In this document: positions 1 to 27,962 of the stretch, piece by piece
Layout: the number at the start of each line of letters is the position of its first letter
Numbering within the stretch: the first letter of the stretch is position 1
Assembly: GCA_019310825.1 (NCBI GenBank)
Contig: JAFDDO010000002.1
Location: forward strand, 1 to 35,514
DNA: 35,514 nucleotides
Origin: Deltaproteobacteria bacterium
Lineage (GTDB): Bacteria > Desulfobacterota > Dissulfuribacteria > Dissulfuribacterales > UBA3076
Direction: 5' to 3'
Program-made: the position numbers and the translations under genes
The notes under the pieces: model-generated
What the model was told of the DNA's origin: nothing
Seen by the model: the letters and a program-made list of their open reading frames with translations, nothing else
Database searches by the model: none

Positions 1-642
1 GATCTTAAGGGCGAGCTTGCCGGACGGGGAGGTATTGGTCAGGAAGACCGCGCCTGCTCCATCAGAGAGCATCCAACGAAGAAAATCCGCATTAAAGGTC
101 ACCGGAGACGATTCTTCTAAGTCTTCAACCTTCTTCTGACTGACTGGTCCAAAAAACCGGCTACGTATGAAGGAGGATGCCAGTTCCGAACCACAAGCCA
201 CTGCATTTTTCGAAATCCCAGTAGCTACGTTCATATATGCGTATTTCAATGCTGTTATTCCGGAAAGGCAGATCCCTGAGGTACTGACCACTTCGCACGG
301 AATATTTCCCAATTCTCCATGCACCATTGATCCATGACCAGGCATCAATTGATCCGGTGTGGATGTTCCGCAACAAAGGCATTCAATATCATCCTGAGAA
401 AAACCTTCGTAAGGCTTCAGTTGGCGAATCGCTTCTGCCGTAAGCTGAACATTTGTGTGTGTTGTCTGGCCAGTGGCAGGATCAATGGCATAATATCTTT
501 GATGAATCCTATTTTTTCGGAGAATAATTTTCTTGATACGAGATGATACCTGGTCGACCATGCCCAAAATCTTTTCAATCTCATCGTTGTTGACAGGACT
601 GTTTGGCAAAAAAGCCGCAATATCAGTTATATAAACATCCAT
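1..642 (-). CDS. beta-ketoacyl-ACP synthase III-like condensing enzyme (FabH/DarB/type III PKS-like thiolase); C-terminus lies beyond the window edge
   Basis: My own translation of the minus strand from ATG 642-640. The frame stays open to position 1, which is why it is absent from the ORF track. Sequence: MDVYITDIAAFLPNSPVNNDEIEKILGMVDQVSSRIKKIILRKNRIHQRYYAIDPATGQTTHTNVQLTAEAIRQLKPYEGFSQDDIECLCCGTSTPDQLMPGHGSMVHGELGNIPCEVVSTSGICLSGITALKY... The N-terminal layout and the nucleophile-Cys context (GICLSG) are typical of KAS III-type enzymes. Confidence 0.7.
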   Translation of the reverse strand, partial: MDVYITDIAAFLPNSPVNNDEIEKILGMVDQVSSRIKKIILRKNRIHQRYYAIDPATGQTTHTNVQLTAEAIRQLKPYEGFSQDDIECLCCGTSTPDQLMPGHGSMVHGELGNIPCEVVSTSGICLSGITALKYAYMNVATGISKNAVACGSELASSFIRSRFFGPVSQKKVEDLEESSPVTFNADFLRWMLSDGAGAVFLTNTSPSGKLALKI

Positions 643-650
643 TGTAACTG

Positions 651-785
651 CTCAGGTATTTAGGCTGAAGGCTGAAGGCTGAAGTATATCAATCATCTCG
701 TAACGCTCGAATGCCCTAAGTTTTGTGTGATCGCGCATGTTTTGTTCCTAAAAACCTTCCACCTTTAGTCTATCCACCTGAGTAG
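651..785. repeat. 135-bp hairpin cassette (family 2, GGCTGAA-type arms) that fills the whole gap between the cobalamin radical SAM gene and the KAS III gene
   Basis: The left arm ctcaggtatttaggctgaaggctgaaggctgaag is the inverted complement of the right arm ccttccacctttagtctatccacctgag. The core ttttgtgtgatcgcgcatg recurs at 27040-27058 and 27181-27197. On the minus strand the core reads ATG CGC GAT CAC ACA AAA CTT AGG GCA TTC GAG = MRDHTKLRAFE. Confidence 0.8.
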
Positions 786-2156
786 TCATAATTTTGCCCC
801 GGCGTGACAGGCCTTTAAGAGGCTGGCATAATTTTGGTAAAAAACCTCCTCTTCCAATTGTGTAGGGGTAACTGCATTTGTAAGAGTATAATAATCAAGA
901 TCGTGAATAATGATTTGATCTTTTACTGATTCGTACAAATGAGTTCCGGGCAAAGGCGTCAGCACTGTTAGTATCGGCAAATCAATGGCGTTATCCTCGA
1001 TGTATCTTGCGAGCGTTTCAAATTGGGCCTCTTTATAATCCGGAGAAACGATAAAGTCACCTACGATAGTGATGCCGATATTGTGCAATATTCGGATAGC
1101 TTCCGAGTTGGTCGCGACGTTGTTGGCCTTTTTCATTTTCTGAAGGCCTTCATTGCTGATTTCTTCAAAACCAATAATCACTGACCGCAGTCCTGCTTTT
1201 TTCCACTGCAACAGCAGGTCGGAATGACGCACTACAGTGTCAGACCGGATGTCCGCCAGGAAATGTTTTTTTATCCCGGCTTCTTGAATACCTTCGCAAA
1301 GTCTGCTTGCGTGATCAAGATTGCCAAAGGTATTGGCATCGACCAGACGGATAACAGGAATGTCCTCAAGCAACCGGATGTCGCGCAAAATACTTTCGAT
1401 TTTGCGGGTAAGATAGCGCCCTCCAGCTTGGCCGGCAATGCAACAAAATGAACAGTTGTATGGGCAGCCGAAAGCCGTTGCTACAAAACCGACTCTGAGA
1501 TTGAGAGATGACAGTGTATAGCTCTCACGATATTGCCTTACAAGATCGTAACAAGGAGATTTTTCATCCACTAGGTCAAGGGAACAGTATTTTCGAGGAA
1601 TATATGAGAGACGACTTCCCGGATTGGTCTTGGCAACGCCGGCAATGGTCCTTGTCTCACCTCCCGACTCAATGGTTGACACAAGTTCTCTCAGGCTCGC
1701 CTTTCCCAAGCCTATGACAATATAGTCAATGTCTTGTTGATTAAAGAACTCAGGGTCATTGCTGGCATGCATACCCCCCACCACCACGGTTGCACCGCAG
1801 GCCTCCTTGATCTCCGATGCGAGCATGAGCATGGTGTTTGCTTCACAGGTCACTCCGGTAATTCCGACAATATCAGGCATGAACTCAGAGAGAACACTGT
1901 GCAGCGTGGAAGGTTCTGCCTTGAGATCGACAATACGGACCTCGTATATTTCGAGGTTACCTGCCAGGACCTCGAGAGCAAGGGGTTCCCCGCGGAATAT
2001 CTGCTTCAGGGAATCGATTCCGTATTGCTCTTCCGGAATACTGCGACCGCAATTAGGAGGGTTGACAAGGAGAATCTTCACGAGCTTGAGTTCTTTTTCA
2101 AGAAAACCAACAAATAGGATCTTCGGCCAGATAATCTCCGGTGATCTGATAGGCAT
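786..2156 (-). CDS. class B (cobalamin-binding domain) radical SAM enzyme
   Basis: 456-aa ORF. The N-terminal region (KILLVNPPN...EPLALEVLAGNL...VGGMHAS) resembles the B12-binding Rossmann domain of BchE/P-methylase-type enzymes. The radical SAM motif CPYNCSFC (CxxxCxxC) follows. The start is uncertain: ATG 2156 overlaps the upstream gene by 59 nt, and GTG 2081 (VKILLVNPP) is the alternative. Confidence 0.85.
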   Translation of the reverse strand: MPIRSPEIIWPKILFVGFLEKELKLVKILLVNPPNCGRSIPEEQYGIDSLKQIFRGEPLALEVLAGNLEIYEVRIVDLKAEPSTLHSVLSEFMPDIVGITGVTCEANTMLMLASEIKEACGATVVVGGMHASNDPEFFNQQDIDYIVIGLGKASLRELVSTIESGGETRTIAGVAKTNPGSRLSYIPRKYCSLDLVDEKSPCYDLVRQYRESYTLSSLNLRVGFVATAFGCPYNCSFCCIAGQAGGRYLTRKIESILRDIRLLEDIPVIRLVDANTFGNLDHASRLCEGIQEAGIKKHFLADIRSDTVVRHSDLLLQWKKAGLRSVIIGFEEISNEGLQKMKKANNVATNSEAIRILHNIGITIVGDFIVSPDYKEAQFETLARYIEDNAIDLPILTVLTPLPGTHLYESVKDQIIIHDLDYYTLTNAVTPTQLEEEVFYQNYASLLKACHAGAKL

Positions 2157-3132
2157 TGCCCCTGCAACCGTAGCATCTATACTTCAGCTCACATTTGCCA
2201 CAACGTCCCTTTATCAATTTCCGTATGTTTCTGAGCTCTTGGATAACCGGACTCTTGTTTAAGATATGTTCCAATGTATCTTCACGGACATTTCCTACAG
2301 ACAGGTTTACTCCACAGCATGGATGGATGTCTCCATTGGCGACCACAGTGCATGAGTATTCATGCCTGGCGCAGTGAGAGGCTGCCAATGGTGGATGGGG
2401 AATCCACTTGTTGCCAAACTCCTCGGCATCAATCTTTGCAAGGCTTTCAAACAGGGTCCTGGTTTTTTGGATCGATACCTCCAGGTCAGGATGCTCTGTT
2501 GCTCTGCCCTGCAAGGTCATGATCTCTACATAGGGAATAATTCCTTGTTTCCTGGCCCATCGCCACAATTGGGGAAGTTCTTCATAGTTCTGACGGCATA
2601 TGACGGTTTCAACTCCAAGTATGTGTTCCTCATCCGGGTAACCAACAGCCCTTAAGGCCTCAATGCCTCGCTCTATGGCCTGAAATGTCCCGGAATGTCC
2701 AGCCAGCAAGTCCTGGATCTCAGGACGTCTGCTGTTCATCTTTACAACCACGGCTACACCTCTGTCATAAAGGGCTCTGGCCTTGGACGGCGTTATCAGT
2801 GTCCCGTTAGTGAAGAGATCTGCTTTTACGCCTTTGGACAGTATGTAATCTATAACATCAATCAGATATGGATAGAGCAGAGGCTCGCCACCTCCCAGTA
2901 TGATTATCTTGCGTGCCCCAAGTGCTACGGCCTGGTCCACTACATCCAGTATTTCAGGCAGTGAAAGTTCGTTTTCCATAGGTAAGCCGGATGACGCATA
3001 ACAGTATATACAGCGCAGATTGCACGCCCTCGACAGCTCAAGTTCCAGGGACAGAAGTCCCTTTCGGGCACGGGCCTCGGCAATCTCTTCTTGAGAGAAC
3101 TCAAGTCCCCAATGTTTTTCAAAAAAGCTCAT
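2098..3132 (-). CDS. radical SAM enzyme with a C-terminal SPASM/twitch-type Cys-rich domain
   Basis: 344-aa ORF with CNLRCIYC (CxxxCxxC) near the N-terminus. The C-terminal auxiliary-cluster region is CARHEYSC...HPCC...GRCGKCELKYRCYGCRGNAY. Its ATG forms an ATGA overlap with the stop of the upstream ligase gene (3129-3132). Confidence 0.85.
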   Translation of the reverse strand: MSFFEKHWGLEFSQEEIAEARARKGLLSLELELSRACNLRCIYCYASSGLPMENELSLPEILDVVDQAVALGARKIIILGGGEPLLYPYLIDVIDYILSKGVKADLFTNGTLITPSKARALYDRGVAVVVKMNSRRPEIQDLLAGHSGTFQAIERGIEALRAVGYPDEEHILGVETVICRQNYEELPQLWRWARKQGIIPYVEIMTLQGRATEHPDLEVSIQKTRTLFESLAKIDAEEFGNKWIPHPPLAASHCARHEYSCTVVANGDIHPCCGVNLSVGNVREDTLEHILNKSPVIQELRNIRKLIKGRCGKCELKYRCYGCRGNAYQITGDYLAEDPICWFS

Positions 3133-4466
3133 GGTTTATCATTATCCCTAAGATCAAAAAAACGTTTCAGTTTTCGTCCGCCCGCCTTTTCCATAGTGTT
3201 TAGCACTTCTTGCCTGGGCCTTACTATTACCTCAGGACGGACTCTGAGGCGGGCCTGGAGGAATTCGGCCACCATGTCTGCATCAATATCTGATGCGTCT
3301 GTGCCTGCAACCACCCTTATTTCATCCGAAAGATCATACGAAGACTTCACCTCCACATAGGCCTCCTCCACATGTCTGAACTCTCTGAGCACATGGAAAA
3401 TCATCTCCGGATAGATGGTCGTCCCATGAAATTTAAGGCGTTGAGCAAGCCTTCCTTCTATAGGACCCAGACGAGTTGTACGCCAACCGCATTGGCATGG
3501 GTCTGTATGAAGCCGGGCCACATCTCCGGTACGAAAACGTATAAGAGGAAAGCCCTCCACGCCCAGCGGGGTAACCACAACTTCACCGGCTTTGCCTGTT
3601 GGCAGAACGTTTCCATCTCCATCCACGATCTCAACCAGGGCAAGTTCCGGATGGATATGCCCACCGCAAGAGGCATGACACTCGCAAAAGCAGGTCTCCA
3701 GCTCTGTTGCAGCGTAAGAAGAATAGACGCGCGCTCCCCATGCCTTTTCCAGATCTTTACCAAGAGGGGTTAAGGAGTTACCCTGCCCCCGGACCGGTTC
3801 ACCAATTGTGACAAGAGATTGCACTCCGGAGCAGTTGGGAGAATACCCCTGGGCCTCTCCCCACTGCGCCAATTTTAACAGGAACGTAGGCACGCCCACG
3901 ATTCCATCGGGCCTGAGCTGGCGTATCAGTTCCCACTGTCTGGCGGATTGGCCGGGTCCGCTTCGGATGGCAGTGGCACCAAGCTGGACAAGACCGGAAA
4001 AATAAGCCAGTCCGGCGATAAAACAACGGTCCAGAGTCACACAGATAAGATAGCGGTCTCCAGGCCGGACCCCCGTACCCCAGAAGGCCATGAGTTCGTT
4101 AAAGGCAAGCCGTGCAAGGTCGTTCCTGGTGTATGGAACCACTATGGGACTTCCTGTTGTCCCTGAAGTCAGTGACAGATCGGCTATTGATGCGGCCTCA
4201 ACCGCCTGAAAGGCTGTTGGGTCCATTTCTAATGCGCTGCGGCTGGTAAACGGCAAGGACCTGAGATCTTCCAAGACAATTATGTCTTTAAAGCTGCAAC
4301 CCAGAGCTTTCAGAAGTTGCTTGTAATAAGGGGCTTGACCGGCTTGCTGAACCTGGTTTCGCAAAAGCCCTGCCTGGAAATTTTCTATTTTTTCCGGGTC
4401 TGCGATACGCCACTCTAAAGCAGTCTTCAAAGAATAGCGGCTTTGCGTCAAACTACATTTAGTCAT
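3129..4466 (-). CDS. adenylate-forming enzyme of the PaaK / coenzyme F390 synthetase / LuxE acyl-protein synthetase type
   Basis: 445-aa ORF with the phosphate-binding loop LTSGTTGSPIVVPYT. Size and layout match phenylacetate-CoA-ligase-like (COG1541) enzymes. It overlaps the upstream gene by 8 nt. Confidence 0.8.
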   Translation of the reverse strand: MTKCSLTQSRYSLKTALEWRIADPEKIENFQAGLLRNQVQQAGQAPYYKQLLKALGCSFKDIIVLEDLRSLPFTSRSALEMDPTAFQAVEAASIADLSLTSGTTGSPIVVPYTRNDLARLAFNELMAFWGTGVRPGDRYLICVTLDRCFIAGLAYFSGLVQLGATAIRSGPGQSARQWELIRQLRPDGIVGVPTFLLKLAQWGEAQGYSPNCSGVQSLVTIGEPVRGQGNSLTPLGKDLEKAWGARVYSSYAATELETCFCECHASCGGHIHPELALVEIVDGDGNVLPTGKAGEVVVTPLGVEGFPLIRFRTGDVARLHTDPCQCGWRTTRLGPIEGRLAQRLKFHGTTIYPEMIFHVLREFRHVEEAYVEVKSSYDLSDEIRVVAGTDASDIDADMVAEFLQARLRVRPEVIVRPRQEVLNTMEKAGGRKLKRFFDLRDNDKP

Positions 4467-5271
4467 TGCCGCAAATAGCCGAAGATGTGATTAGATCGGA
4501 CATCATGCCCGACTTATAGCCAGTGGCGTTAAAAGGATTCACGCTTCGCTTGGCCAACTCGGTCGCTATGGACTCTCTGGCTTGATCCTTCAACGCGCGA
4601 ATACAGTCCGGATTATCCCCACACCCGGATGGTATTATCGGAGATAAGATGACCATCTTCACCCTGGATGGTGTGAGAAACCTGCTACCCGGTGGCATCA
4701 GGCGGTCAGTCCCCAGGATACATACCGGCACTATAGATGTTCCTGTATTACAAGCCAACCGGAAAGCCCCATTTTTAAAACGCGCAAGCCCGCCGTCTCT
4801 GGAGCGGTGTCCCTCAGGCCAGAATATGAGAGAACACCCCGATGCCAGCAGTTCTTTTCCCTTGCTCCAGACTATATCCCAGCCGTCATTTGAATTGATG
4901 TAACGCGCCAATCGCATTAACCACTTGTAGACCGGAATTCGAAAGGGCCACGATGTCACAAAGGCATTTTCAAACGGCAGCATACCAAAAAGGTAAGGGT
5001 CTACTGAGGAATTATGATTAGCCACAAATATTACCGGAGGTTTAATTCCGTTGGAAAAGTCTTCTACGGTGGCCGGGGCCATAAAGGGGACAACACGCAC
5101 CAATGCCCAACCATAAAGACGAATACTCTCCCTAATTACGCTGTCCATTGGCTGGTTTGCAAAAACGCTGTATATCAATAGTAAGGGGAGTATAAAAGAA
5201 AGACAGAAAACAGTGAAAACAGCAAAGACAGGCCAAATATACAGGTTGAGCAACAACTTTTTAAGGCCCAC
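4459..5271 (-). CDS. lysophospholipid / 1-acyl-sn-glycerol-3-phosphate acyltransferase family protein (PlsC-like), membrane anchored
   Basis: 270-aa ORF with an N-terminal TM segment, the HX4D motif (NHNSSVD) and a PEG(H/T)RS-type motif (WPEGHRSRDG). The GTG start at 5271 lies 6 nt after an AAGGAG. Confidence 0.8.
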   Translation of the reverse strand: MGLKKLLLNLYIWPVFAVFTVFCLSFILPLLLIYSVFANQPMDSVIRESIRLYGWALVRVVPFMAPATVEDFSNGIKPPVIFVANHNSSVDPYLFGMLPFENAFVTSWPFRIPVYKWLMRLARYINSNDGWDIVWSKGKELLASGCSLIFWPEGHRSRDGGLARFKNGAFRLACNTGTSIVPVCILGTDRLMPPGSRFLTPSRVKMVILSPIIPSGCGDNPDCIRALKDQARESIATELAKRSVNPFNATGYKSGMMSDLITSSAICGND

Positions 5272-5274
5272 TTA

Positions 5275-5541
5275 CTACTCCTTAGCAGCTTGCTGATTAC
5301 TAAGATGACTAACAAGCTCAAAAAGATCGCCCAGAGTCCTTACAGCCCGCACTGCCTCTTCATCGGTCATCTTCATCCCAAATGCCTTTTCCAGGGCCAC
5401 TACCATGTCTACCGCATCAAGGCTGTCCAGCCCAAGATCCTCATACAGGGTGGCGTCCGGCTGAAGCAACTCGGGTTCGAGTTCGAATTCCTCTGCCATA
5501 ATCTGCGTTACCCGGCGGCGGACCTGTTCGTCTGATATCAT
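5275..5541 (-). CDS. acyl carrier protein
   Basis: Has the LGLDSLD phosphopantetheine-attachment motif. I prefer ATG 5541-5539, which forms an ATGA overlap with the upstream KAS stop and is preceded by GGAGGTG. The ORF track extends the ORF to GTG 5550. Confidence 0.9.
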   Translation of the reverse strand: MISDEQVRRRVTQIMAEEFELEPELLQPDATLYEDLGLDSLDAVDMVVALEKAFGMKMTDEEAVRAVRTLGDLFELVSHLSNQQAAKE

Positions 5542-6788
5542 GCTGTCCACCTCCGCAGCACCATAGCGGCGTTAACCCCACCCAGTGCAAAGTTGTTCTT
5601 TAATACTATGTTCATTGAAAGCTTGTCCACTGAATGTGCCAGATTGATACCTAAACAAGCCGGATCGGGCCTTTCCAGATTAAGGGTCGGCACAACCTCC
5701 TGCCGGTCCAACATCTCAAGGAGCAATATTGTCTCAAGTGCCCCGGCGGCACCAAGGGTGTGCCCCAAATGCCCTTTGTATGAGCTGACCGGCACATCTT
5801 TACCAAATATGGTATGGATTGCAACGGCCTCTGCTATATCTCCAAGCAAAGTCCCCGTGGCATGTGCATTTACATAATCAATGTCATCTCCATTCAATCC
5901 GGCCTCGGCCAAGGCATTACGCATTGTCCTGACCATGGAGTCTTCATGCGGATTGGCAATGCTCTTGCTGTCATTTACATGACCAAACCCCAGGATCTCA
6001 CAATAAATCTTTGCCTTACGCCTCAAAGCAGAGTCCAGGCTTTCCAGGACCACGACACCTCCACCTTCACCACAAACGACCCCATCCCTGTTCAGGTCAA
6101 ATGGCCTGGGAGTGGTCAAAGGGAGATCATGACTTCGTGAGGCCGCTTTTATCACGTCGAACACCATTGTGACCGTAGGATGGACCTCGTCAGCTCCGCC
6201 ACACAGCATCGCCTCTTGCCGGCCGGAGCGAATTAACATATAACCAAGACCCATGGCCTGTGCTGATGAGGTGCACGCACTTGTGGGCGCCCACTGTTCG
6301 CCGGTTATTCCGAGGGCAAGGCAGACATTGGCCGCGCAGCAATGCCCCATAATCTTAAAAAACATCCCGGATCGGACATGTTCAACACTCTCTTCAGGTA
6401 AAAACTGCCTGTACAATGCCTCGTATATCGTGGGACTCCCGGTAGTGGACCCGATTGCCACCCCTACCCTTCCTGATGTCAGAAAGTCCGGCTCAAGTCT
6501 GGAATCCGAGACTGCCTCCTTGGCGGCCAGGGTAGCATAAATGGCCATGGGGCCCATAGTTCGTCGAATGGTGCGAGGCAATAAGGGCTTGGCATCAAAG
6601 GGTGGAACCGGCCCTGCCATGTGGCATTGAAGTCCTTGAATATTCTCCCAATCCGGCATCAGCTGTATGCCTGATCGCCCATTCCACACTCCATCCAATA
6701 GATCAGCCGTCCCTAACCCAAATGGGGATACCGCCCCACGCCCGGTGATAACTACCCGCTTCAGCGACACTGTCTCACCTCGTCCCAC
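5538..6788 (-). CDS. beta-ketoacyl-ACP synthase I/II-like (FabF/FabB family), Cys-His-His triad intact
   Basis: 416-aa ORF with PTSACTSS (nucleophile Cys), NAHATGT and KGHLGHTLGAAG. The start is either GTG 6788 or GTG 6770; the latter is preceded by GAGGTGA. Either start overlaps the upstream gene. Confidence 0.9.
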   Translation of the reverse strand: MGRGETVSLKRVVITGRGAVSPFGLGTADLLDGVWNGRSGIQLMPDWENIQGLQCHMAGPVPPFDAKPLLPRTIRRTMGPMAIYATLAAKEAVSDSRLEPDFLTSGRVGVAIGSTTGSPTIYEALYRQFLPEESVEHVRSGMFFKIMGHCCAANVCLALGITGEQWAPTSACTSSAQAMGLGYMLIRSGRQEAMLCGGADEVHPTVTMVFDVIKAASRSHDLPLTTPRPFDLNRDGVVCGEGGGVVVLESLDSALRRKAKIYCEILGFGHVNDSKSIANPHEDSMVRTMRNALAEAGLNGDDIDYVNAHATGTLLGDIAEAVAIHTIFGKDVPVSSYKGHLGHTLGAAGALETILLLEMLDRQEVVPTLNLERPDPACLGINLAHSVDKLSMNIVLKNNFALGGVNAAMVLRRWTA

Positions 6789-8257
6789 AGGGGTTCCAGA
6801 CCTTCAATTTCACCTACGGTCACCATACCGGCAAGTGAGGCCCCCATTATTCCGGCCATTAACGTCCCCTGTCCGCTAAGCCATAAACCCGGCAAACGGG
6901 TCCTGACCCCGGGACTGAATTGGTTCATGCTGTGCTGAACTCCATATGTTGCTCCCATTGGTGAACCTAGTCTGTCTCTGAATGTAAGAGGGGTCCCTAT
7001 TGCCAGGGGTTCTATGCGGCTGCAGGCATCACCCCAGAGCCTGCCTGCCTGCTCTATCATCTTATCGGCAGATTCTGCTTTCCACTTTCTATATGCCGAG
7101 CTGCGTTTTCCTTGCACACCCTGATCAAAACGGGCTACTTCGTCCCAAGCTGACATCCGTATCAACAGGACTCCCCGTGATGCACCTGTGGAATCCGAAT
7201 CCCTTCGTCCAGGGGCGTTAATCATGATCGATTTTTCCGGATGCCTCAAGTCTAAATCCATTATGTCCAGACCAGTACGGATGTTGTAATAATTGACCCA
7301 TGTCAGATCTCCCAGTGTATCAGGATCATCTATGGCCCCGAATACTATAAACATAGAGTTTGTATTTATCAGATTCCGCATACGATTATAGAAGGCCTTG
7401 CGGAATATTCCATCCGGGACCATATCCAAAAGGCTGGTGGGATGACCCGTGTAGATCACATGAGAGGCGCATATCTCTCCCTTGGAAGTCTTGACTCCTG
7501 CCACCTGATTTTCCTTTACTATGATCGATTCAACCTCTTGCCCGGTCAGAATATCCACGCCTGCTTCTGCCAGGGTTGCTAAAAAGGCATCCACTATGGC
7601 CTGTCCACCACCATCTATGGCATAGACCCCGGAATATAGCGGGTGGGCAACTGAGGCATGGATAGTAAGATTAACCTCCCTGGGTGGAACTCCATAGAGA
7701 AAAACCGGTGTTGACAGCACGGCATGAAGATCCGTATCCTGAATAAGGGATGTCAGAAGTTGAGCCAGGCTCATGCCTTTCGGAGAAAACAGGTCATGTA
7801 AATATGGAGTAAGGGGGAGATCCGGATTAAAGAATGGGATGGTGTTGGAGATTTCCCTGATTTTATTGAGATAGGTGGAAATCCCTTGTTTTTCGTCTGG
7901 AAAGACCCGTTGCAGTTCGTCCTCCAAACGATCATAGGAAAAAAAGGCCCGGACTACTCTGCCGGAATCCCTTATTCTGAGATTCTCATTACCTTCCGGG
8001 GGAAAGGGAAGTATGACAAGACGAGGCCAGACACCTATATATTCCCACAGGGCCCGCAGTATTTCTCCCTTTCCCATACCACCTGAGTAGTGAAAACCAA
8101 TGTCAAAGGGAATTCCTCTGCGTGTAAAACGCTTTAACGCCCCACCGGGCCTCTTGTTTCGTTCCAGTATAATTACTCGTCTGCCTTTTTTGGCAAGCAG
8201 GGCCGCGGCTGTCAGACCGCTTATCCCGCTCCCTATGACAACGACTGCAGCCTTCAT
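6761..8257 (-). CDS. NAD(P)/FAD-dependent oxidoreductase of the phytoene desaturase (CrtI/CrtD, COG1233) type
   Basis: Has the dinucleotide-binding fold MKAAVVVIGSGISGLTAAALLAKKGRRVIILE. Its length of about 498 aa and its C-terminal GQGTLMAGIMGA-type segment are typical of CrtI-like enzymes. I chose ATG 8257 (ATGA overlap with the upstream KAS stop) rather than the track start at 8314. Confidence 0.8.
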   Translation of the reverse strand: MKAAVVVIGSGISGLTAAALLAKKGRRVIILERNKRPGGALKRFTRRGIPFDIGFHYSGGMGKGEILRALWEYIGVWPRLVILPFPPEGNENLRIRDSGRVVRAFFSYDRLEDELQRVFPDEKQGISTYLNKIREISNTIPFFNPDLPLTPYLHDLFSPKGMSLAQLLTSLIQDTDLHAVLSTPVFLYGVPPREVNLTIHASVAHPLYSGVYAIDGGGQAIVDAFLATLAEAGVDILTGQEVESIIVKENQVAGVKTSKGEICASHVIYTGHPTSLLDMVPDGIFRKAFYNRMRNLINTNSMFIVFGAIDDPDTLGDLTWVNYYNIRTGLDIMDLDLRHPEKSIMINAPGRRDSDSTGASRGVLLIRMSAWDEVARFDQGVQGKRSSAYRKWKAESADKMIEQAGRLWGDACSRIEPLAIGTPLTFRDRLGSPMGATYGVQHSMNQFSPGVRTRLPGLWLSGQGTLMAGIMGASLAGMVTVGEIEGLEPLWDEVRQCR

Positions 8258-9501
8258 CAAGCAATCCTTATAACCAGGCAGGCATTGGTCCCACCAAAAC
8301 CGGATGCATTGCAAAGCATAAAACGTGGCCTGAATGTAACCGTCTTTTTGGGGAGATATAAGACCTCTGCAGCGGGATCCGGCACTTCAAGGTTGGGATT
8401 TCCTGCCACAAAACCGCCACATGCCATCAGCAGACCATAGACCACTTGTGATGCGCCTGCCATCCAGAATTCGTGACCTGTCAGCCCCTTCACTGCGGAC
8501 ACAATTGGGCCTTTTTTTGCCCCATTCAAATCAAAAACATTTCGCAGGGCAATTGCCTCTGCCCTGTCACCAGAAAGGGTTGATGTGGCATGTGATAAAA
8601 CCAGATCAATATCATCAGGGGAAAGGGCGGCATCCATCAAAGCACAGCGCATTGCCCGTTCCAACCCCTCCCCGCTCGGCACCGCTATGTGGTGACCGTC
8701 TGATGTGTTGGAATAACCCATAACCTCGCCCAATATCTGAGCACCTCGTGCCTCGGCCAATTCGAATGCCTCTAAAACGATAGCAGCGGCACCACCACTG
8801 GGGACTAGCCCGTCCCGGTCTTGATCAAACGGGCGAGAAGCTGCCCCGGGATCGTTTTCCCTGCGCGAAAAGGCCCCTAAGGCATCAAAGCTGCACATGG
8901 ATTCCCAGGAGATTTCCTGCACCCCACCGCAAATGATTCGATCTTGCCTGCCAAAGGCTATGGTTTCAGCCCCATGGCCTACTGCCATGGCACCGCTCGC
9001 GCAAGCCCCGCTCACAGTCCAAGACACTCCACGTATTCCCAAAATGTTGTTCAGGTTAAGGGTAACAGTACTGGTTAGCAGCCGGAATATGTGTCCACTG
9101 CCTATGGCCCTTGTCTCCCCGGCAGATCGAAGCGTATCCACCTGCTCAACTGCCGTAACAGCAGAGGAATCGTTGCCGAACACCACTCCTGTTTTCTCAT
9201 CACCAGTCAGACTATCAGGATGAATACCGGCCTGCTCCAGGGCCTGAGACACCGCAGACCAGGCCCAGAGGCCATATTCCGGCAATGTCTTGCGATGTTT
9301 CCTGTCCAAAACACTCTTCGGATCAAAGCCATCGACAACACCGCTAAGCGCGCTCTGAAAACCTAAGGCCTTACGTTCAGGGAGAAAACGTACGCCGCTT
9401 CTTCCTTCCCGGAGGGAGGCCTGCACTTCATCTCTATTGAGGCCCAAACAGGAAATAATACCAATGCCCGTAATGGCTACTCGTCTATTTTTATGTTTCA
9501 T
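8257..9501 (-). CDS. beta-ketoacyl-ACP synthase I/II-like (FabF/FabB family), first gene of the operon
   Basis: 414-aa ORF with VSGACASG (nucleophile Cys), SHATST and GLTGHEF (the two His residues). The N-terminus RVAITGIGIISCLG is typical of KAS I/II. Confidence 0.9.
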   Translation of the reverse strand: MKHKNRRVAITGIGIISCLGLNRDEVQASLREGRSGVRFLPERKALGFQSALSGVVDGFDPKSVLDRKHRKTLPEYGLWAWSAVSQALEQAGIHPDSLTGDEKTGVVFGNDSSAVTAVEQVDTLRSAGETRAIGSGHIFRLLTSTVTLNLNNILGIRGVSWTVSGACASGAMAVGHGAETIAFGRQDRIICGGVQEISWESMCSFDALGAFSRRENDPGAASRPFDQDRDGLVPSGGAAAIVLEAFELAEARGAQILGEVMGYSNTSDGHHIAVPSGEGLERAMRCALMDAALSPDDIDLVLSHATSTLSGDRAEAIALRNVFDLNGAKKGPIVSAVKGLTGHEFWMAGASQVVYGLLMACGGFVAGNPNLEVPDPAAEVLYLPKKTVTFRPRFMLCNASGFGGTNACLVIRIA

Positions 9502-9628
9502 TTAAGTTCTTTTGAGTTTGATAGCTCAATTCTATTCAGGCCAAAACAGGAAATAATACCAATGCCCGTAATGGCTACTCGTCTATTTTTATGTTTCACT
9601 TAAGATTTTTTGAGTTTGATGGCTCAAC
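9433..9628. repeat. tandem direct duplication (2 x 98 bp, about 93% identical) of the KAS start codon region
   Basis: Unit 1 (9433-9530) and unit 2 (9531-9628) align with no gaps and 7 mismatches, and 55 nt are identical in a row. Unit 1 contains the real ATG (9501-9499) and codons 1-23. In unit 2 the ATG is changed to GTG (9599-9597). Confidence 0.9.
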
Positions 9629-18530: not shown

Positions 18531-19886
18531 CTATTTCCTCCAGACCCACTCGGTCTTGAGATCTATCTTCTTCTCCTCACTGAAGAACAAGACCTTATCA
18601 TCATTTTTGAATTCACCAAAGGGCACATACCACAGCTTTACTTCCACCAAAAGCTCATCTTCGGTAAGTTCCCTGGTCTTTTTACCGTCTTTCTCTACAT
18701 CAGCATATGGAAACGGTATCTCAAAAACTTCCTTAACCTTCTTCAGAGGCGGTATACAGGTATCTCTGAGCAAACCGCACTTCTCATAGGGTCCTCTTCC
18801 CATCTCTGACCCTCTGCCGAAACGTCCGGGGTAAGGCATGTAGATAACTTGATCATTATAAATTTTTTCCCCACCTATTGTTTTCGCGGTCACATCCAGG
18901 ACCAGCCTGTTAGGGGTGGGTCACCCGTCAGGTATAGCATGCCCAGACTTATTGTAGATCTCTACGTTAATTACACCAAGAGGAATAACGCCTTCTACAC
19001 TGTCTTTGCGCCAGAAGTGGGACATGGCTTCGACTTCGATATCAAAGGCCATCTTGATCATGTCCTCGTCCCGGTAGGCTTGCATGTCGTGGCCCAGACC
19101 GGATTTGGCCATATGGCATTCCTGGCAGGTGTCGTGCCCGCCTTCAGGAATATACGCAAAGAGGTAGCTGCCGTACAATGTGGCACACTGGGAGGGCTCA
19201 TCTAACTCGAAGTTGGGCCCCTCACCATGGCACTGACCACAGAATATGGATTCATTCAAGGCCGGGGCCTTACCCATTGCGGTAAAGTCAGGGTGATCAT
19301 GCTCACCTTCCTGAAATGCATAAATTGTATCCGGCTGAGGATAGCCATCCTTCCATTTGTGGATAATGGCCTTCTTGTTATGGCAGACTAAGCAACCGAT
19401 ATTCAGGCTTGCTATCTTCTCCTCAAGTTCATCTGCTATATCTTCATAATCTTCATCTTCTACTGATTTTTGGCATGCACTTAGCCAGTCTCTGACGGTC
19501 TTGACGATTTCCCTAGCCACATCATCCGTTGCCTCATCCAGTTGAGGCAAATGGCATTTGGCGCACATCATGAGGTGACGAACTTCGACATCGTCATCCG
19601 TCTTGACACCGGAATAAGGGAACAACTTAAGACCCATATCTATGCTAGTTAGTATTGTCGGAGCTGTCCGTGGAGTACCCAGGATGGAAACGGCGTGAAG
19701 GGAATTACTCCACTGTTCGTATTTCTCTTCGTGACACTCCTCACAGGAACTCGAATCATAGCGAGCAGCTAGTTCTGCGATGGTCTTGGCCTTGGGGACC
19801 TCCGCAGGCTTTGTGCCGCAAAGTCCATAAGAGGACCAGACACAGCTCACCAAAAACAAAAATGTTACAATCCTCAAAACTCCCAT
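18531..19886 (-). CDS. secreted pentahaem c-type cytochrome, interrupted by an in-frame TGA at 18921-18923 (selenocysteine, readthrough or pseudogene)
   Basis: Five CxxCH motifs (CEECH, CAKCH, CLVCH, CGQCH, CQECH), a signal peptide with a possible lipobox (LVSC) and a strong RBS (AGGAGGGAGG). Track ORFs 18921-19886 and 18531-18893 are in the same frame and are separated only by TGA plus 9 sense codons. Confidence 0.75.
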
Positions 19887-20284: not shown

Positions 20285-22909
20285 ATGGCTGAAAAATCAG
20301 TAAAAACAACCACAAAGAAAAGAAAAGGCATCTGGATTCTTGGTATTTTTTTTCTTTCAGCAGCCTTGCTGTTAGGCTCGCTTTATACATTTCTTCCATT
20401 GCTTATAAAAAAACTGGCGCCAATTGTTGCAAGATCCGAAGGATATGTGGTGAGGCTGAGCGAAGTCAGAACGAGTTATGGTTTTATAACTTTTGAAAAA
20501 ATCCGCATCAGTCACAAAGAAATCAGTGGAGAGATCCAAAGAATATCCGTTGAATATTCCCTCTGGCCCTTTGGTCTCAATAAGATCAAGCTGGAGAAGC
20601 CGGACTTTATTGTCACTCCAGAAGCTTCAACCGGCAGCGACTTCAGGCTTAACAGGACCTTGGTGGGGCTGCTGGAAAAAGTCTCAATTGTAAATGGAGA
20701 GATACAGCTAAAAACTACATCTTTTGTGACAAGCCTGAGTTCCCTTTCAATAGACAGAAACGAACTTTCGTCGTCGGTGCAGAAACCAAATAACCTATCT
20801 TCTGCTTCTACCCTGTCAGGCCTCATATCAGTGGTAACTCCGGGAATCCAGGCCGAGGGTGACCTGAAAGGCATGCTGGACTGGAATTCAACACGATTTC
20901 GTCTTGTATCAAAAGGGGAAATAATAGTTAATAAATCACAGGGCAGGACAGCCTATGACCTCAAAACTTCCGGCAGGATTGAGGCCCAAATGGACGAACT
21001 GAGTGCCGAAGCTGATCTTGCGGTTCATGACCTTTGCTCAATCTTTCCTTCCCTTTCAAGAAAAAAGTCCAAAAACGACTCGACCGGCAATATCAGGCAA
21101 CCTTGTTATGTAAGCATATCAACCAGCATCAGATATCTCCTGGGTGAAGGCCTGAATGCGTCAGGGAAATTGGCCCTTAAGGATACGAGATTATCTTCAA
21201 TCTCAGGCATCCCCACGATCCAGGGCATCTGGCAAATGAAGGCGTCTCCAGATTTAAAAAATGGCTTCATTGACGCCGGCTTTGAACCTCGAGAATTGCC
21301 TATTTCCATTAAGCTTTCTTGGCCCGGTGAAAACGGCAATCAATGGGAAGCTATTGCCGGAATCTCAAGCACCAACTATGACTTTTCCAATCTCAAAGGC
21401 TCCCTCTTGTCCGGTCTTGGGAATATAATTGCTGACGCATTTGTCACACCCGATTCGTGGCAGGTATCTACGAGCCTTGACGTAAAGGACCTATCCTGGG
21501 CCAGAGACGAAAACTATGCCGTTGAAGGGATCTCCTCAAAGATCGAGTTCTTTGCAAATTACGATGGATCTCCTAAAAACGTTTCCTGGGAAGCCAACTT
21601 AGAATGGAATGAAGGGGCAGCACTTGTATATCCATGGTTTCTGGATCTCTTTCAACTCGCCGCCAGTATCAAAACCACGGGAACTCTGGATAAAAAGAAA
21701 CTGCTTTTCAACAAAATCGCAGTGTCCGGACCGTTTGAACTTGTGGCCACAGAGGTCTCCCTTGATTACGGCCTTAATGACAATGTTGCAAAGCTTGCTC
21801 AATGGAAAATGCCGAAGATTCAGTTCCTTAAGGCCAACGGCAGATTAGAGATTCCATATGAAGTATTACTTCAGGAACCGTTTTCTGTAAATTACGGCTT
21901 TTTGAACGATCTGGTGCCAAGGGGCACCTGGCTGGTTGAGCTGGAGCAAGATGGTTTGCGCACCGGAATAAAAACAGACATCTTTTTTTCAGGACATGAT
22001 GTCATCCAGGGAATGGATCTTAATCTTGCCTACTCAATAAATACGGATAAATGCAGGCCCGGCCTTATCAAGTGGGACAGACTGACCTGGCCTCCACTGG
22101 ATTTAGAAAAAACAAAGATCCCCTTGACTATTTGCAAAAATAATCTTAGTTGCGGACAGGTCAAAATTCCAGTTGCACAAGGAGAGATTTCCCTCAAAAA
22201 GATCTCCTGGGATTGGCTGGCATCAAGCTTGAGCCTGAGGGGACTCAGGCTCATTGGTATTAATCTGAAGGCACTCTGGCCGGATTTACCCCTCCGGGTT
22301 GATATTGAGGCTTATCTCGATCAGGGTATATGGAGTGATCCAAGGCTCAACTTCAATGGAGAGTTATTGTTCAACACGGCGGGGGGCAAAATCAGGTTTC
22401 AGAACATCTGGATAGAGCCTCTTGCCCCAATGCCCCGTTTTGGTGCTGATGTAGTCTTTCATGACCTGGATCTTGCGCAACTAAGTGATGCTGCGCACTT
22501 TGGACGAATAGCCGGAAAACTGACAGGACACATTGACAACCTAATCATGAGTGGTGGTCAGCCTGAGTCCTTTGAATTAATGATGGAGAATGATCCCAGT
22601 GCCTCTGGTCCTAAAAAGATTAGCCTTGAAGCAGTTGAAAAGATCTCAGTCCTGGGTGGAGGCGGATCGATTCCCTTGTTCGGGCGTATGTTCAAGGAAT
22701 TCCCCTATCGTCGGATAGGCATATCGTGTAGCCTGAAAAATGACATGTTCACACTCCATGGCTTGATAAAAAAAGACGGACAGGAATACCTGGTGGAAAG
22801 GGGCTTTATCAGAGGAGTAGATGTCATAAACAGAAATCCTAATAGCAAGATCTCTTTCAAAGACATGCTGGATAGATTAAAAAGAATTACCCGTACCGAA
22901 CAAGAGTAA
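20285..22909 (+). CDS. YdbH-like AsmA-family large envelope protein (N-terminal membrane anchor)
   Basis: 874-aa ORF with a single N-terminal TM segment after a Lys-rich lead and a long beta-rich body. Its size and its position directly upstream of a DUF1318/YdbL-like gene mirror the E. coli ydbH-ynbE-ydbL operon. The family call rests on architecture and synteny, not on a run search. Confidence 0.6.
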   Translation: MAEKSVKTTTKKRKGIWILGIFFLSAALLLGSLYTFLPLLIKKLAPIVARSEGYVVRLSEVRTSYGFITFEKIRISHKEISGEIQRISVEYSLWPFGLNKIKLEKPDFIVTPEASTGSDFRLNRTLVGLLEKVSIVNGEIQLKTTSFVTSLSSLSIDRNELSSSVQKPNNLSSASTLSGLISVVTPGIQAEGDLKGMLDWNSTRFRLVSKGEIIVNKSQGRTAYDLKTSGRIEAQMDELSAEADLAVHDLCSIFPSLSRKKSKNDSTGNIRQPCYVSISTSIRYLLGEGLNASGKLALKDTRLSSISGIPTIQGIWQMKASPDLKNGFIDAGFEPRELPISIKLSWPGENGNQWEAIAGISSTNYDFSNLKGSLLSGLGNIIADAFVTPDSWQVSTSLDVKDLSWARDENYAVEGISSKIEFFANYDGSPKNVSWEANLEWNEGAALVYPWFLDLFQLAASIKTTGTLDKKKLLFNKIAVSGPFELVATEVSLDYGLNDNVAKLAQWKMPKIQFLKANGRLEIPYEVLLQEPFSVNYGFLNDLVPRGTWLVELEQDGLRTGIKTDIFFSGHDVIQGMDLNLAYSINTDKCRPGLIKWDRLTWPPLDLEKTKIPLTICKNNLSCGQVKIPVAQGEISLKKISWDWLASSLSLRGLRLIGINLKALWPDLPLRVDIEAYLDQGIWSDPRLNFNGELLFNTAGGKIRFQNIWIEPLAPMPRFGADVVFHDLDLAQLSDAAHFGRIAGKLTGHIDNLIMSGGQPESFELMMENDPSASGPKKISLEAVEKISVLGGGGSIPLFGRMFKEFPYRRIGISCSLKNDMFTLHGLIKKDGQEYLVERGFIRGVDVINRNPNSKISFKDMLDRLKRITRTEQE

Positions 22910-26380: not shown

Positions 26381-26888
26381 TCACTCGTCAGTGGGATGCG
26401 AAGCTGCCAGTTCTGACAAGGGGACTACACGAAAGCCTCGGCAATTGAACTCTGGTAGAATAGTGGCAAGAGCTGAAGCCGTGCGCTTACCACGTGCTAA
26501 ATGATCGTGTAAAACAATGATTGACCCAGGCCGGACATTCCACAGAACATAGCACGCCGCAAACCCTGAAAAACTATTTTTAAGGCAAATCATAGAGATA
26601 ACGTGCTGCTGAGGGACGCGCGGTTTTTTGCGCATCCCTTCCAGCAGAAGGTTAGGCAACCCTTTCACATTATGGGCTGCGCAAAACGAACACAGCTCCC
26701 CCATATCCCTTTACAGCAGAATTCATTTCAAAAAACTGGATATCTTTATGGTCAAGATCTTCGACCGCCTCCGGCGGCTTGGACTTATATATATCATCAA
26801 AGACCTATTCGGGAAAGTTTACGTCCCGCCGGAGGTTGATGGACAAGACAATGGAATAGGTGGACGTTCGTATGAGCGTGCTTGCCAT
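26381..26888 (-). pseudogene. frameshifted polysaccharide deacetylase (NodB-type) remnant
   Basis: Three minus-strand fragments in different frames: MASTLIRTSTYSIVLSINLRRDVNFPE*, then VFDDIYKSKPPEAVEDLDHKDIQFFEM...VFVLRSP* (FDD(G) motif region), then track ORF 26381-26704 ending GSIIVLHDH...ALATILPEFNCRGFRVVPLSEL (typical C-terminus). Confidence 0.45.
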
Positions 26889-26923
26889 TTGCTGGTACTG
26901 CAGAAAGAAAAGATTTTTTGTAA

Positions 26924-27243
26924 CTATTCAGGTTGAAGGCTGAAGGCTGAAGGATTTCAAGCAGTTCGCATTGATCGAACAGAGATGAATCCTCTAAACT
27001 AATACTGCAATCTCGTCAGCCAACTCAAATGCCCGCAGTTTTGTGTGATCACGCATGATTTGTACCTATTAGCCTTCTACCTTCAGTCTTTTCAGGTTGA
27101 AGGCTGAAGGATTTCAAGCAGTTCACAACGCTAAAACGCCCTAAATTTCGTCCCTAACAGTCTTCAGCCTATCCACCTAATTGTGTGATCACGCATGATT
27201 TGTACCTACTAGCCTTCTACCTTCAGTCTATCCACCTGAATAG
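26924..27243. repeat. 320-bp nested/tandem array of family 2 hairpin cassettes (GGCTGAA arms) carrying MRDHT(KLRAFE...) gene-start remnants
   Basis: ctattcaggttgaaggctgaaggctgaagg (26924-) against ccttcagtctatccacctgaatag (-27243). A second left arm lies at 27091-27110. The core ttgtgtgatcacgcatgatttgtacct occurs twice (27042-27068, 27181-27207). Confidence 0.8.
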
Positions 27244-27428
27244 TTACGATTTTTTTTACCACGGAGAGGACGGGGAAAGGCAGAGTCGGATGTCTGAGGT
27301 CTGAAGTCAGATATCAGAGTTGATAACCACGAACCACAAACTATGAACTACTTAGAGGACAGAACAAATGGATGGATGGACGTCAGAACGCCGCTCACTT
27401 CGGAATCTCACTGTTTTTTTGCTTATTC

Positions 27429-27683
27429 TCAATAGTGGTAACGACACTGTGCAATTAACAATTCATCTTTTTTAGCCTTATAAACAAACCGATGCTCTTT
27501 ATTGATACGGCGTGACCAATATCCTTTCCAGTTGTAGCGTAGTGGTTCAGGCTCACCTATTCCTTCAAATGGATTTCGTTTAGTTTCTATGATGATACGG
27601 TTAATTCGCCTGAGAATTTTTTTATCTGTTTTCTGCCAGTAAAGGTAATCTTCCCATGCTTCTTCAGCCCATGACAGTTTCAT
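27429..27683 (-). CDS. yoeB: YoeB/Txe family toxin (ribosome-dependent mRNA interferase)
   Basis: The 84-aa ORF is collinear with E. coli YoeB as I recall it (MKL.W.EE.W.DYLYWQ.TDK...PFEG.G.PEPL...GYWSRRI..EHR.VY......L.IA.CRYHY). Confidence 0.95.
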   Translation of the reverse strand: MKLSWAEEAWEDYLYWQKTDKKILRRINRIIIETKRNPFEGIGEPEPLRYNWKGYWSRRINKEHRFVYKAKKDELLIAQCRYHY

Positions 27684-27934
27684 TCCTCAATAAGCTCTCT
27701 CTCGATGCCTTTACCTGCTTCTAACTTGCCAATGGCAGCATTGATACGTTCAGCGTTTTTGGGACTCTTCATGAGATATGCTGTTTCTTCGTATGATTTG
27801 AAATCATCAAGTGACAGAAGCACTGCTGCTCGTCCTTTCTGGCGTGTAATAAGGATAGGGCAATGATCATCGTTGACTCGATCAATGGTTTTTGCCAAAT
27901 CTTTTCGAAATGTTGTGTAATTTATTGATTCCAT
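27680..27934 (-). CDS. yefM: YefM/Phd family antitoxin
   Basis: MESINYTTFRKDLAKTIDRVNDDHCPILITRQKGRAAVLLSLDDFKSYEETAYLMKSP.NA. ATG 27934 is preceded by AAGGAG, and the gene overlaps yoeB by 4 nt. Confidence 0.95.
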   Translation of the reverse strand: MESINYTTFRKDLAKTIDRVNDDHCPILITRQKGRAAVLLSLDDFKSYEETAYLMKSPKNAERINAAIGKLEAGKGIERELIEE

Positions 27935-27962
27935 ATATTTCTCCTTTATAATTAAAGAAAAA

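Follow-up and report, generated by a model that had tools for sequence, protein, structure and literature searches.

What is made by the operon that opens contig JAFDDO010000002.1 of a Deltaproteobacteria bacterium (assembly GCA_019310825.1), an anaerobe of sulfate-reducer type, and which enzymes shape the product? The stretch analysed, positions 1 to 35,514 of the forward strand, is called the window in the following. From 9501 down to 1 it carries nine tightly packed minus-strand genes, as was confirmed by reading. An earlier note, made from the sequence alone, had described nine tightly coupled genes on one strand, which sequence and translations prove to be real, and had placed them in a single linear line of intermediates bound to an acyl carrier protein (ACP). 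The present analysis shows two joined modules of anaerobic Thermodesulfobacteriota: a seven-gene block, and a pair formed by a radical S-adenosylmethionine (SAM) enzyme with a B12-binding domain and a cyclising ketosynthase (KS). Joined, they most likely make an alkyl- or aryl-substituted cyclohexanedione or resorcinol lipid or pigment, similar to dialkylresorcinols, stilbenes or flexirubins, by a route free of oxygen in which the B12 enzyme acts in the place of the aromatase DarA. We would put this reading at about an even chance.

The last gene of the operon (1..642, minus strand) encodes, within the window, the N-terminal 214 amino acids (aa) of a ketosynthase whose full length of 382 aa is found on a longer contig (L001:11515-12663; L numbers denote the loci compared). 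With 564.6 bits against NF005293 (cut-off 450) the full-length protein belongs to the StlD/DarB family. The window fragment alone gave 308 bits with this model, compared to only 43-51 bits with the FabH models, by which a priming β-ketoacyl-ACP synthase III of the FabH type is ruled out. The annotation as such an enzyme in the earlier note is thus replaced by that of an StlD/DarB-family cyclase, in line with an end-to-end alignment to the crystal structure of StlD (5gk0; 394.8 bits, residues 2-382) in which the regions of the catalytic Cys, His and Asn are kept (TSGxC, LPHYSSEYF and KGNTG). The score of 468.5 bits lies below the cut-off of the strict DarB model NF053539 (550), as does that of the DarA-linked DarB of Burkholderia pseudomallei (501 bits), to which the operon protein is 51% identical. 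Enzymes of the StlD/DarB type join a β-ketoacyl and a 2-enoyl thioester to a carboxy-cyclohexanedione, which is then converted into a resorcinol by DarA or StlC (PMC6836626). According to the same review from 2019, DarB homologues without an aromatase exist, the products of which are not known (PMC6836626).

To compare loci, all nine operon proteins were searched by tblastn and the open reading frames (ORFs) were clustered; the 44 loci in which the sequence reached 6 kb or more upstream and 7.5 kb or more downstream were regarded as well flanked. In 81 of 83 loci, and in each of the 44 well-flanked ones, the B12 radical SAM gene lies directly upstream of DarB with the same orientation. This pair was found in Desulfuromonadia, Desulfobulbia, Syntrophia, Syntrophorhabdia and Holophagae as well as in one metagenome-assembled genome (MAG) of the Verrucomicrobia. 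Since the canonical order, as seen on a Burkholderia pseudomallei plasmid, is darA-darB-acpP, the radical SAM gene occupies exactly the position of darA. The 318-aa protein upstream of darB on that plasmid is DarA, with 58% identity to the "aromatase DarA" of Pseudomonas chlororaphis and 55% to StlC of Photorhabdus. All named DarA homologues came from aerobic or facultative bacteria (Pseudomonas, Burkholderia and Photorhabdus). As Pfam and NCBIfam hold no DarA model, a profile was built from 120 homologues. Both this profile and tblastn at E values up to 10 failed to reveal DarA in the window and in 92 further loci, with the control L087 as the only one that scored. By genomic association the B12 enzyme is the obligate partner of DarB, and it is probably an oxygen-independent replacement for DarA. 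Our literature search yielded no paper that links DarB, dialkylresorcinols or aryl polyenes to a radical SAM partner; the matches obtained for "DarB" concerned darobactin and not the ketosynthase.

In a neighbour-joining tree the 78 B12-linked DarB proteins are monophyletic against a small outgroup of three other homologues, namely the DarA-linked DarB of B. pseudomallei and DarB homologues from a Prevotella and a Pseudoalteromonas plasmid. The distance of the B12-linked proteins to the DarA-linked DarB is about equal to the distances among themselves. A further kind of neighbourhood was seen on the plasmid of Pseudoalteromonas sp. THAF3 (NZ_CP045419; L090, 5001-6784), where a DarB homologue of 39% identity occurs without DarA and is directly followed by an "iron-containing redox enzyme family protein". 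The latter may represent a third kind of partner for DarB-type cyclases.

The surroundings of the pair were evaluated in the 44 well-flanked loci. An ACP occurs in 36 and a KS in 35 of them, and a BtrH-like protein together with an ABC permease and an ABC ATPase in 24. This accessory set of BtrH, ABC transporter, ACP and KS is the content of the Azoarcus dar cluster responsible for the dialkylresorcinol half of arcuflavin (PMC3949708). Two or more aryl-polyene markers (chain length factor (CLF), ketoreductase (KR), ApeP-type dehydratase (DH), LolA, PagL or LipA-type acyltransferase) accompany the pair in 23 loci. A CrtI-like gene plus an acyltransferase was found in seven, a SPASM-type radical SAM gene plus a ligase in four, and the pair with nothing else, similar to the self-sufficient DarAB, in five.

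Which reaction is to be expected from the B12 enzyme (786..2081, minus strand; 431 aa from GTG 2081; Pfam PF02310 and PF04055)? It exhibits the features of class B radical SAM enzymes, an N-terminal B12-binding Rossmann domain and the core CX3CX2C (CPYNCSFC). All family scores are far below the cut-offs: the hopanoid C-3 methylase HpnR ranks first with 173 bits (cut-off 650) and BchE second with 130 bits (481), and TIGR04072 gave 51.6 bits (360). Searches of the PDB by sequence and by fold returned only the generic class-B fold. The AlphaFold2 model of the protein likewise has a class-B radical SAM fold (pLDDT 77.8, pTM 0.81). Its Foldseek neighbours comprise the methylases TsrM at the top and MgmA and CysS at high ranks, as well as the non-methylases AprD4 and OxsB. 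AprD4 shares the cobalamin domain, yet it is a diol dehydratase. More than 1400 homologues of the enzyme were obtained, the best 120 with 62-94% identity. In a scan of one genome per species the best 80 of 548 candidate relatives (56-94% identical) were kept; they belong mostly to Thermodesulfobacteriota (Desulfuromonas, Desulfuromusa, Geobacteraceae, Syntrophus, Syntrophorhabdus, Desulfobulbales and Desulfurivibrio), with a few Holophagae and one Verrucomicrobia MAG as the minority.

The same outline of the pathway would result if the B12 enzyme were a cobalamin-dependent C-methyltransferase acting on the ring or on the alkyl chain. The product would then be a methylated cyclohexanedione, or aromatisation would proceed spontaneously or by another enzyme such as the SPASM or CrtI-like protein. 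This alternative appears unlikely, but it deserves serious consideration. Most characterised class-B radical SAM enzymes are methylases, and methylases lead both the family ranking and the fold comparison; as the structural neighbours include methylases and non-methylases alike, the alternative stands. A function like that of HpnR is not implied, since every family score falls far short of its cut-off. Cyclohexanediones are known end products of DarB-type enzymes (PMC6836626), and the SPASM enzyme, whose best matches are the oxidative decarboxylases AhbD and NirJ, could aromatise in the window operon. However, a tailoring methylase would not be expected beside DarB in all 44 well-flanked loci, none of which showed DarA. 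Because only seven of the 44 pair loci contain a SPASM gene and 15 a CrtI-like gene, neither protein can be the general aromatase.

Returning to the proposal of a DarA replacement, the likeliest reaction of the B12 enzyme would be an oxidative, decarboxylating aromatisation to the resorcinol, formally similar to the reactions of HemN/AhbD and BchE. By analogy with the chemistry of HemN and AhbD, a hydrogen atom would be abstracted β to the ring carboxylate, and the loss of an electron and of CO2 would provide the double bond required for aromatisation. The proposed logic resembles the pairs AcsF/BchE and HemF/HemN as well as AhbD, in which a radical SAM enzyme performs an oxidative and possibly decarboxylating step in anaerobes. 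BchE, the second-best family match, is also a non-methylating radical SAM enzyme with a B12 domain. It is reported to act as an anaerobic oxidase and not as a methylase (PMC13598231). This is an analogy only, with 130 bits for BchE against its cut-off of 481. We tentatively suggest, at somewhat less than an even chance, that the 431-aa family is an unrecognised oxygen-independent aromatase which converts carboxy-cyclohexanediones into resorcinols by oxidative decarboxylation and displaced DarA once, in an ancestor of the B12-linked DarB clade.

The other seven genes precede the pair, all on the minus strand. The first, KS1 (8257..9501), encodes a β-ketoacyl-ACP synthase I/II-like protein of 414 aa with both ketoacyl-synt domains (N and C) of Pfam and the Cys-His-His triad (GACASG, SHATST and GH); its best NCBIfam model is FabB with 348.7 bits (cut-off 630). 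Orthologues of 63-71% identity occupy the same position in L012-L015, L091-L099 and L121. It is followed by a CrtI-like flavin adenine dinucleotide (FAD) oxidoreductase (6761..8257; 498 aa from ATG 8257) with the motif GxGxxG and the Pfam domains NAD_binding_8 and Amino_oxidase. Its scores remain below the cut-offs for CrtD (113 bits; 550) and for the crtI family TIGR02734 (88.8 bits; 238), and CrtI in the PDB (4dgk) gave only 41.5 bits, so judged by sequence it is a distant relative of CrtI/CrtD only. The flavoenzyme gene always lies between KS1 and KS2, and it is the least conserved gene of the block across all loci. Between the window and L093/L094 it is 63-68% identical at the protein and 64-83% at the DNA level, compared to 84-97% at the protein level for its neighbours in close relatives and 88-95% at the DNA level in L093, the one relative profiled. 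This looks like a gene-specific replacement or fast evolution.

KS2 (5538..6770) is a β-ketoacyl-ACP synthase of 410 aa from GTG 6770, in agreement with Pfam and with the gene call of the Joint Genome Institute (JGI, 410 aa). It also keeps the Cys-His-His triad (SACTSS, AHATGT and GH) and matches NF006587 best, with 396 bits (cut-off 470). The active-site Cys is kept in both KS proteins of the operon. The dedicated ACP (5275..5541; 88 aa) has a PP-binding domain with the motif DSL; it passes NF003757 (81.2 bits, cut-off 65) and fails the AcpP model TIGR00517 (60.8 bits, cut-off 70.45). The acyltransferase of PlsC/LPLAT type (4459..5271; 270 aa; Pfam Acyltransferase, 66 bits) carries an N-terminal hydrophobic segment, HNSSVD for HX4D and PEGHRS for PEGxRS, and gave 53 bits with TIGR00530, below the cut-off. 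The PaaK-type adenylating ligase (3129..4466; 445 aa) is FlxY-like according to NCBIfam: the FlxY model NF053551 is best by far with 403.3 bits (cut-off 520), the PaaK models score much lower, and the phenylacetate-CoA ligase 4r1l in the PDB gave 152 bits. FlxY has been characterised as the PaaK-like 4-coumarate-coenzyme A (CoA) ligase of the flexirubin pathway, with cinnamate and phenylpropionate as further substrates (PMC3992019). Judged by its sequence, the operon ligase probably activates an aryl-propanoid or aryl acid. The block closes with the radical SAM/SPASM enzyme (2098..3132; 344 aa; Pfam Radical_SAM and SPASM), which contains CX3CX2C and the full Cys-rich SPASM motif. Its scores with AhbD (166.6 bits) and NirJ2 (151 bits) stay below the equivalog cut-offs of 500, and the PDB searches with this and the CrtI-like protein gave distant matches only.

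The block is conserved as a unit. SPASM orthologues share 64-72% identity across Desulfobulbales and other groups. Wherever a metagenome or genome contig provides enough sequence, the genes in front of every orthologue with 50% identity or more are KS1, flavoenzyme, KS2, ACP, acyltransferase and ligase in this order. The SPASM gene is always paired with the ligase gene. The earlier note had tied its proposal to a common conservation of radical SAM, desaturase, KS and ACP genes. This holds for the CrtI-like and SPASM genes, which are strictly kept with those for KS, ACP, acyltransferase and ligase, but not for the cobalamin radical SAM gene, which goes with DarB in 44 of 44 loci and with SPASM and ligase in only four. 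The single linear acyl-ACP line is not borne out either, as the B12 radical SAM gene is not conserved together with the KS and ACP genes. In contrast, the suggested logic of aryl-polyene and flexirubin clusters fits well, with a ligase close to FlxY (403 bits, below 520), an ACP passing NF003757 and NF006587 as the nearest model of KS2.

In L094, which shares 86% nucleotide identity with the window operon, the homology ends exactly at the SPASM stop codon. The nine genes are for this reason regarded as two joined modules. The junction of the SPASM and B12 genes (window ~2081-2104) is a recombination breakpoint, at which L094 contains the PagL/TIGR04072/aryl-polyene set. The pair follows directly 3' of SPASM in the window and in L009, L011, L012, L014-L016, L095, L096, L098 and L103, and it lies near the block on the opposite strand in L047, L091 and L121. 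In L091, L092, L094, L105 and L121 the SPASM gene is followed by genes for PagL, a 194-aa protein, a 423-aa B12-binding protein, the TIGR04072 radical SAM enzyme, GT2/DUF2062 and a LipA-type acyltransferase. ACP and KS come after this series in all five except L092, CLF and KR each in only some. Both arrangements occur in Desulfurivibrio alkaliphilus AHT2 (CP001940, L091) and in L121, where the pair is located divergently upstream. The 423-aa protein of L091 (12410-15030 with its neighbour) carries a B12-binding domain and no radical SAM Pfam match on record. Its gene lies directly upstream of the TIGR04072 gene, and the two are kept together with 63-81% identity in L092, L094, L105, L112 and L121.

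Such a mosaic raises the question whether two unrelated pathways were joined by chance or recently, that is, a B12-radical-SAM/DarB system for dialkyl-cyclohexanediones or -resorcinols working on ordinary fatty-acid intermediates, and a separate aryl-primed lipid block, with products that never meet. We regard this as improbable. It would agree with the separation of the modules in most genomes, where SPASM and ligase accompany four of 44 pairs and the pair is missing from about half of the block loci, with the end of homology in L094 and an insertion of ~0.5 kb at the same junction in L009, and with the unusually long spacer of 143 nucleotides (nt) before DarB in the window. In addition, DarAB alone is enough for dialkylresorcinol formation in E. 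coli (PMC6836626). On the other hand, the modules come together repeatedly and in differing geometries, either directly downstream or nearby on the opposite strand, and in flexirubin and arcuflavin just these two kinds of moiety are covalently linked.

The earlier note had further connected the operon with ladderanes, a reading in line with Rattray 2009. In such a ladderane-like, or otherwise anaerobic polyunsaturated fatty-acid or hydrocarbon, pathway the CrtI-like enzyme would desaturate acyl-ACP, and the radical SAM enzymes would cyclise or cross-link the chains. The deltaproteobacterial "ladderane-like" clusters of Rattray 2009 contain FabF paralogues and a phytoene-desaturase-like protein along with radical SAM enzymes and a phenylacetyl-CoA ligase, and they show synteny with the region kuste3335-3352 of Kuenenia. 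Indeed, the operon shares with the clusters of anammox bacteria and deltaproteobacteria the FabF paralogues, ACP, phytoene-desaturase-like flavoenzyme, radical SAM enzymes and a ligase of phenylacetyl-CoA type; for kuste3336 and kuste3342-3344 this likeness follows from published descriptions only. The Kuenenia region, which shows synteny with Desulfotalea, comprises a phytoene-desaturase-like gene, two radical SAM genes, the ligase, FabF paralogues and ACPs. The suggested link holds by neighbourhood as well: the block as it occurs in D. alkaliphilus and others runs straight on into a true TIGR04072 gene ("lipid biosynthesis B12/radical SAM"; 607 bits in D. alkaliphilus, cut-off 360) and further genes resembling fatty acid synthase (FAS) and aryl-polyene core genes. 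This arrangement corresponds to that of the deltaproteobacterial clusters of Rattray 2009.

Nevertheless, a ladderane-like product of the window operon is very improbable. The window contains no TIGR04072 gene, its B12 enzyme reaches only 51.6 bits with this model, and the terminal gene encodes a ring-forming StlD/DarB enzyme, which is not described for the ladderane-like clusters in the literature covered. The aryl-acid-type ligase (FlxY/PaaK) points to an aromatic starter. Moreover, the TIGR04072 genes are flanked by the aryl-polyene core genes for GT2/DUF2062, LipA-type acyltransferase, KS/CLF, KR and ApeP dehydratase. No ladderanes were found in Desulfotalea, nor were any obtained when the Kuenenia genes were expressed heterologously. 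We know of no ladderane found outside anammox bacteria.

For the favoured product, a cyclohexanedione or resorcinol lipid or pigment, the following sequence of steps can be envisaged from the families of the enzymes. The FlxY-like ligase would activate an aryl or aryl-propanoid acid and transfer it to the dedicated ACP, either via CoA or directly. KS1 and KS2 would add malonyl units, with ketoreduction and dehydration borrowed from the housekeeping FAS II, and the CrtI-like flavoenzyme and the SPASM enzyme would alter the chain or make the starter. A 2-enoyl and a β-ketoacyl thioester would then be combined by the StlD/DarB ketosynthase, whose family membership is established, in a Michael addition and a Claisen condensation to a carboxy-cyclohexanedione. 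The B12 radical SAM enzyme, found in the position of DarA/StlC, is predicted to carry out the next step without oxygen. Finally, the PlsC-type acyltransferase may transfer an ACP-bound acyl chain in ester linkage, either onto the phenol, as known from flexirubin, or onto a lysolipid. The Photorhabdus stilbene pathway, in which FAS II steps are borrowed, provides a precedent for the combination of ligase, ACP, FAS II, StlD and aromatase.

Compared to DarAB(C) and StlCDE of Pseudomonas, Chitinophaga and Photorhabdus, the operon has the same cyclising ketosynthase family, a dedicated ACP and a partner gene immediately upstream of the ketosynthase; an acid-activating ligase and borrowed FAS II steps are shared with StlCDE. 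It differs in that the partner is a B12-domain radical SAM enzyme, with DarA/StlC absent from all 93 sequences examined, that operons of this type occur in strict anaerobes, that the B12-linked DarB proteins form a clade of their own, and that the CrtI-like, SPASM and PlsC-type genes have no counterpart there. With the clusters for flexirubin (Chitinophaga, Flavobacterium) and arcuflavin (Azoarcus) it has in common a FlxY-like ligase, several KS, an ACP, a glycerolipid-type acyltransferase and DarB. Next to the pair, many related genomes carry dar accessory genes (BtrH-like, ABC transporter, ACP and KS) and also genes for KS/CLF, KR, ApeP dehydratase, LolA, GT2/DUF2062 and LipA-type acyltransferase. 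Unlike these clusters, the operon adds two radical SAM enzymes and a CrtI-like flavoenzyme, and its ligase stays below the FlxY cut-off. It is similar to DarAB/StlCDE, flexirubin and arcuflavin in outline, but fails their defining features, as DarA, a starter enzyme, KS/CLF, KR and DH are missing.

Several observations weigh against the favoured reading. The KS/CLF pair, KR, DH, LolA and exporter, all of which flexirubin and aryl-polyene clusters possess, are absent from the window, the first three also from the contig flanks, and neither a tyrosine/phenylalanine ammonia-lyase (FlxA in flexirubin) nor an enzyme for a chorismate-derived starter (such as the chorismatase XanB2) was found in the window or in the contig flanks. 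As the two modules are often apart, they need not feed one product. The best family match of the B12 enzyme is a methylase, and its fold and sequence cannot separate a methylase from a non-methylase. The search for DarA covered ~10 kb around each pair, and the oxygen dependence of DarA is an assumption, undocumented in the literature covered.

The coupling of the genes was examined at every junction, each read straight off the sequence. Five of the six junctions given in the earlier note were exact: the ATGA overlaps of KS2/ACP (5541-5538) and ligase/SPASM (3132-3129), the 8-nt overlap ATGACTAA of acyltransferase/ligase (4466-4459), the 3-nt gap of ACP/acyltransferase (5274-5272), and the overlap of flavoenzyme/KS2 within 6761-6788, which measures 10 nt from GTG 6770 or 28 nt from GTG 6788. 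Only KS1/flavoenzyme had been wrong in detail; instead of ATGA, a 1-nt overlap of the form TGATG is present, with the TGA of KS1 at 8259-8257 and the ATG of the flavoenzyme at 8257-8255. At the SPASM/B12 junction, which had not been listed, the B12 gene begins at GTG 2081, 16 nt past the SPASM stop. This start is preferred over ATG 2156 because the homologues are 431 aa long and begin with MKILLVNPP. A spacer of 143 nt (643..785, minus strand) separates the B12 radical SAM gene from DarB, compared to only ~4-20 nt in most other genomes, and holds three copies of the heptamer CTTCAGC at 684-664, the "repeat" of the earlier note. All domain calls made there were confirmed in the Pfam and NCBIfam scan of the operon proteins, and the motifs (Cys-His-His in both KS, DSL in the ACP and HX4D in the acyltransferase) were all seen in the translations, as was CX3CX2C in both radical SAM proteins.

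Three JGI metagenomes contain the same contig, one copy measuring 63 kb. On this copy the gene cut by the window (382 aa) is the final one of the operon; behind it come a 60-aa ORF and, on the opposite strand, a convergent gene for a histidine kinase. The cluster had been described as cut by the window edge, which is correct for this last gene and for nothing else. Since the operon ends with it on the longer contig, no biosynthetic genes are missing past the edge, and further ones there are ruled out. The upstream side of the operon is occupied by DUF1538, P-II and CBS genes. The reported lack of KR, DH, enoyl reductase, thioesterase and exporter holds, as none lies nearby on the window or on the contig flanks. 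Scans of the window with Rfam and for tRNAs gave no match. Promoter and terminator scans around the operon gave counts not above the shuffled expectation, and for this reason no claim is made on the start or end of transcription.

At the start of the operon a tandem duplication of 98 nt was found (9428..9623, minus strand), with two copies of 92-93% identity that cover the ribosome-binding region and the first 25 codons of KS1. The upstream copy contains a GTG-started ORF of ~32 codons, the TGA stop of which overlaps the ATG of KS1 (ATGA). The close relatives L093 and L094 have a single copy of this sequence. The remainder of the window does not belong to the cluster: its genes are for pyrimidine biosynthesis, a two-component system, a cytochrome and RACo, besides sugar-nucleotide genes. 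A reductive activator of corrinoid proteins of the RACo type (30484-32367, minus strand) and a cytochrome c7-like protein (18921-19886, minus strand) are in keeping with an anaerobic host that has a corrinoid metabolism, a point of interest for an enzyme dependent on cobalamin. Two plus-strand ORFs of 874 aa (20285-22909) and 553 aa (28831-30492) showed no Pfam family at E<=1e-5. In a region of ~2.4 kb (~26400-28800) all ORFs have at most 107 aa, and no Rfam match and no tandem repeat was observed; it holds the lowest GC content of the window, 0.405 at 27001-28000.

To our knowledge, dialkylresorcinols, bacterial stilbenes and flexirubins are known only from aerobic or facultative bacteria, and always together with the aromatase DarA/StlC. 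A radical SAM partner that is strictly conserved in anaerobes would suggest that radical SAM enzymes with a cobalamin domain catalyse a new reaction, and would add a case in which a radical SAM enzyme replaces an oxygen-linked step. The gene set belongs to a class of clusters that was noticed in 2009 and never solved, for which the conserved pairing of radical SAM enzyme and DarB offers a concrete hypothesis. The comparison also helps to sort the generic aryl-polyene and resorcinol genes from the anammox-specific ones in "ladderane-like" clusters and narrows the search for the ladderane enzymes.

The idea is directly testable, as cultured carriers exist in Desulfurivibrio alkaliphilus AHT2, Desulfuromonas versatilis, Desulfuromusa kysingii and Desulfogranum mediterraneum. 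If the 431-aa family is indeed an oxygen-independent aromatase, part of the "ladderane-like" clusters outside anammox bacteria would be aryl-polyene/resorcinol pathways, and hundreds of anaerobic Thermodesulfobacteriota and Holophagae would make dialkylresorcinol- or flexirubin-like lipids that nobody has sought. For sulfate-, sulfur- and metal-reducing bacteria unexplored membrane lipids or pigments are thus predicted, which might serve as biomarkers or as redox-active antioxidants.

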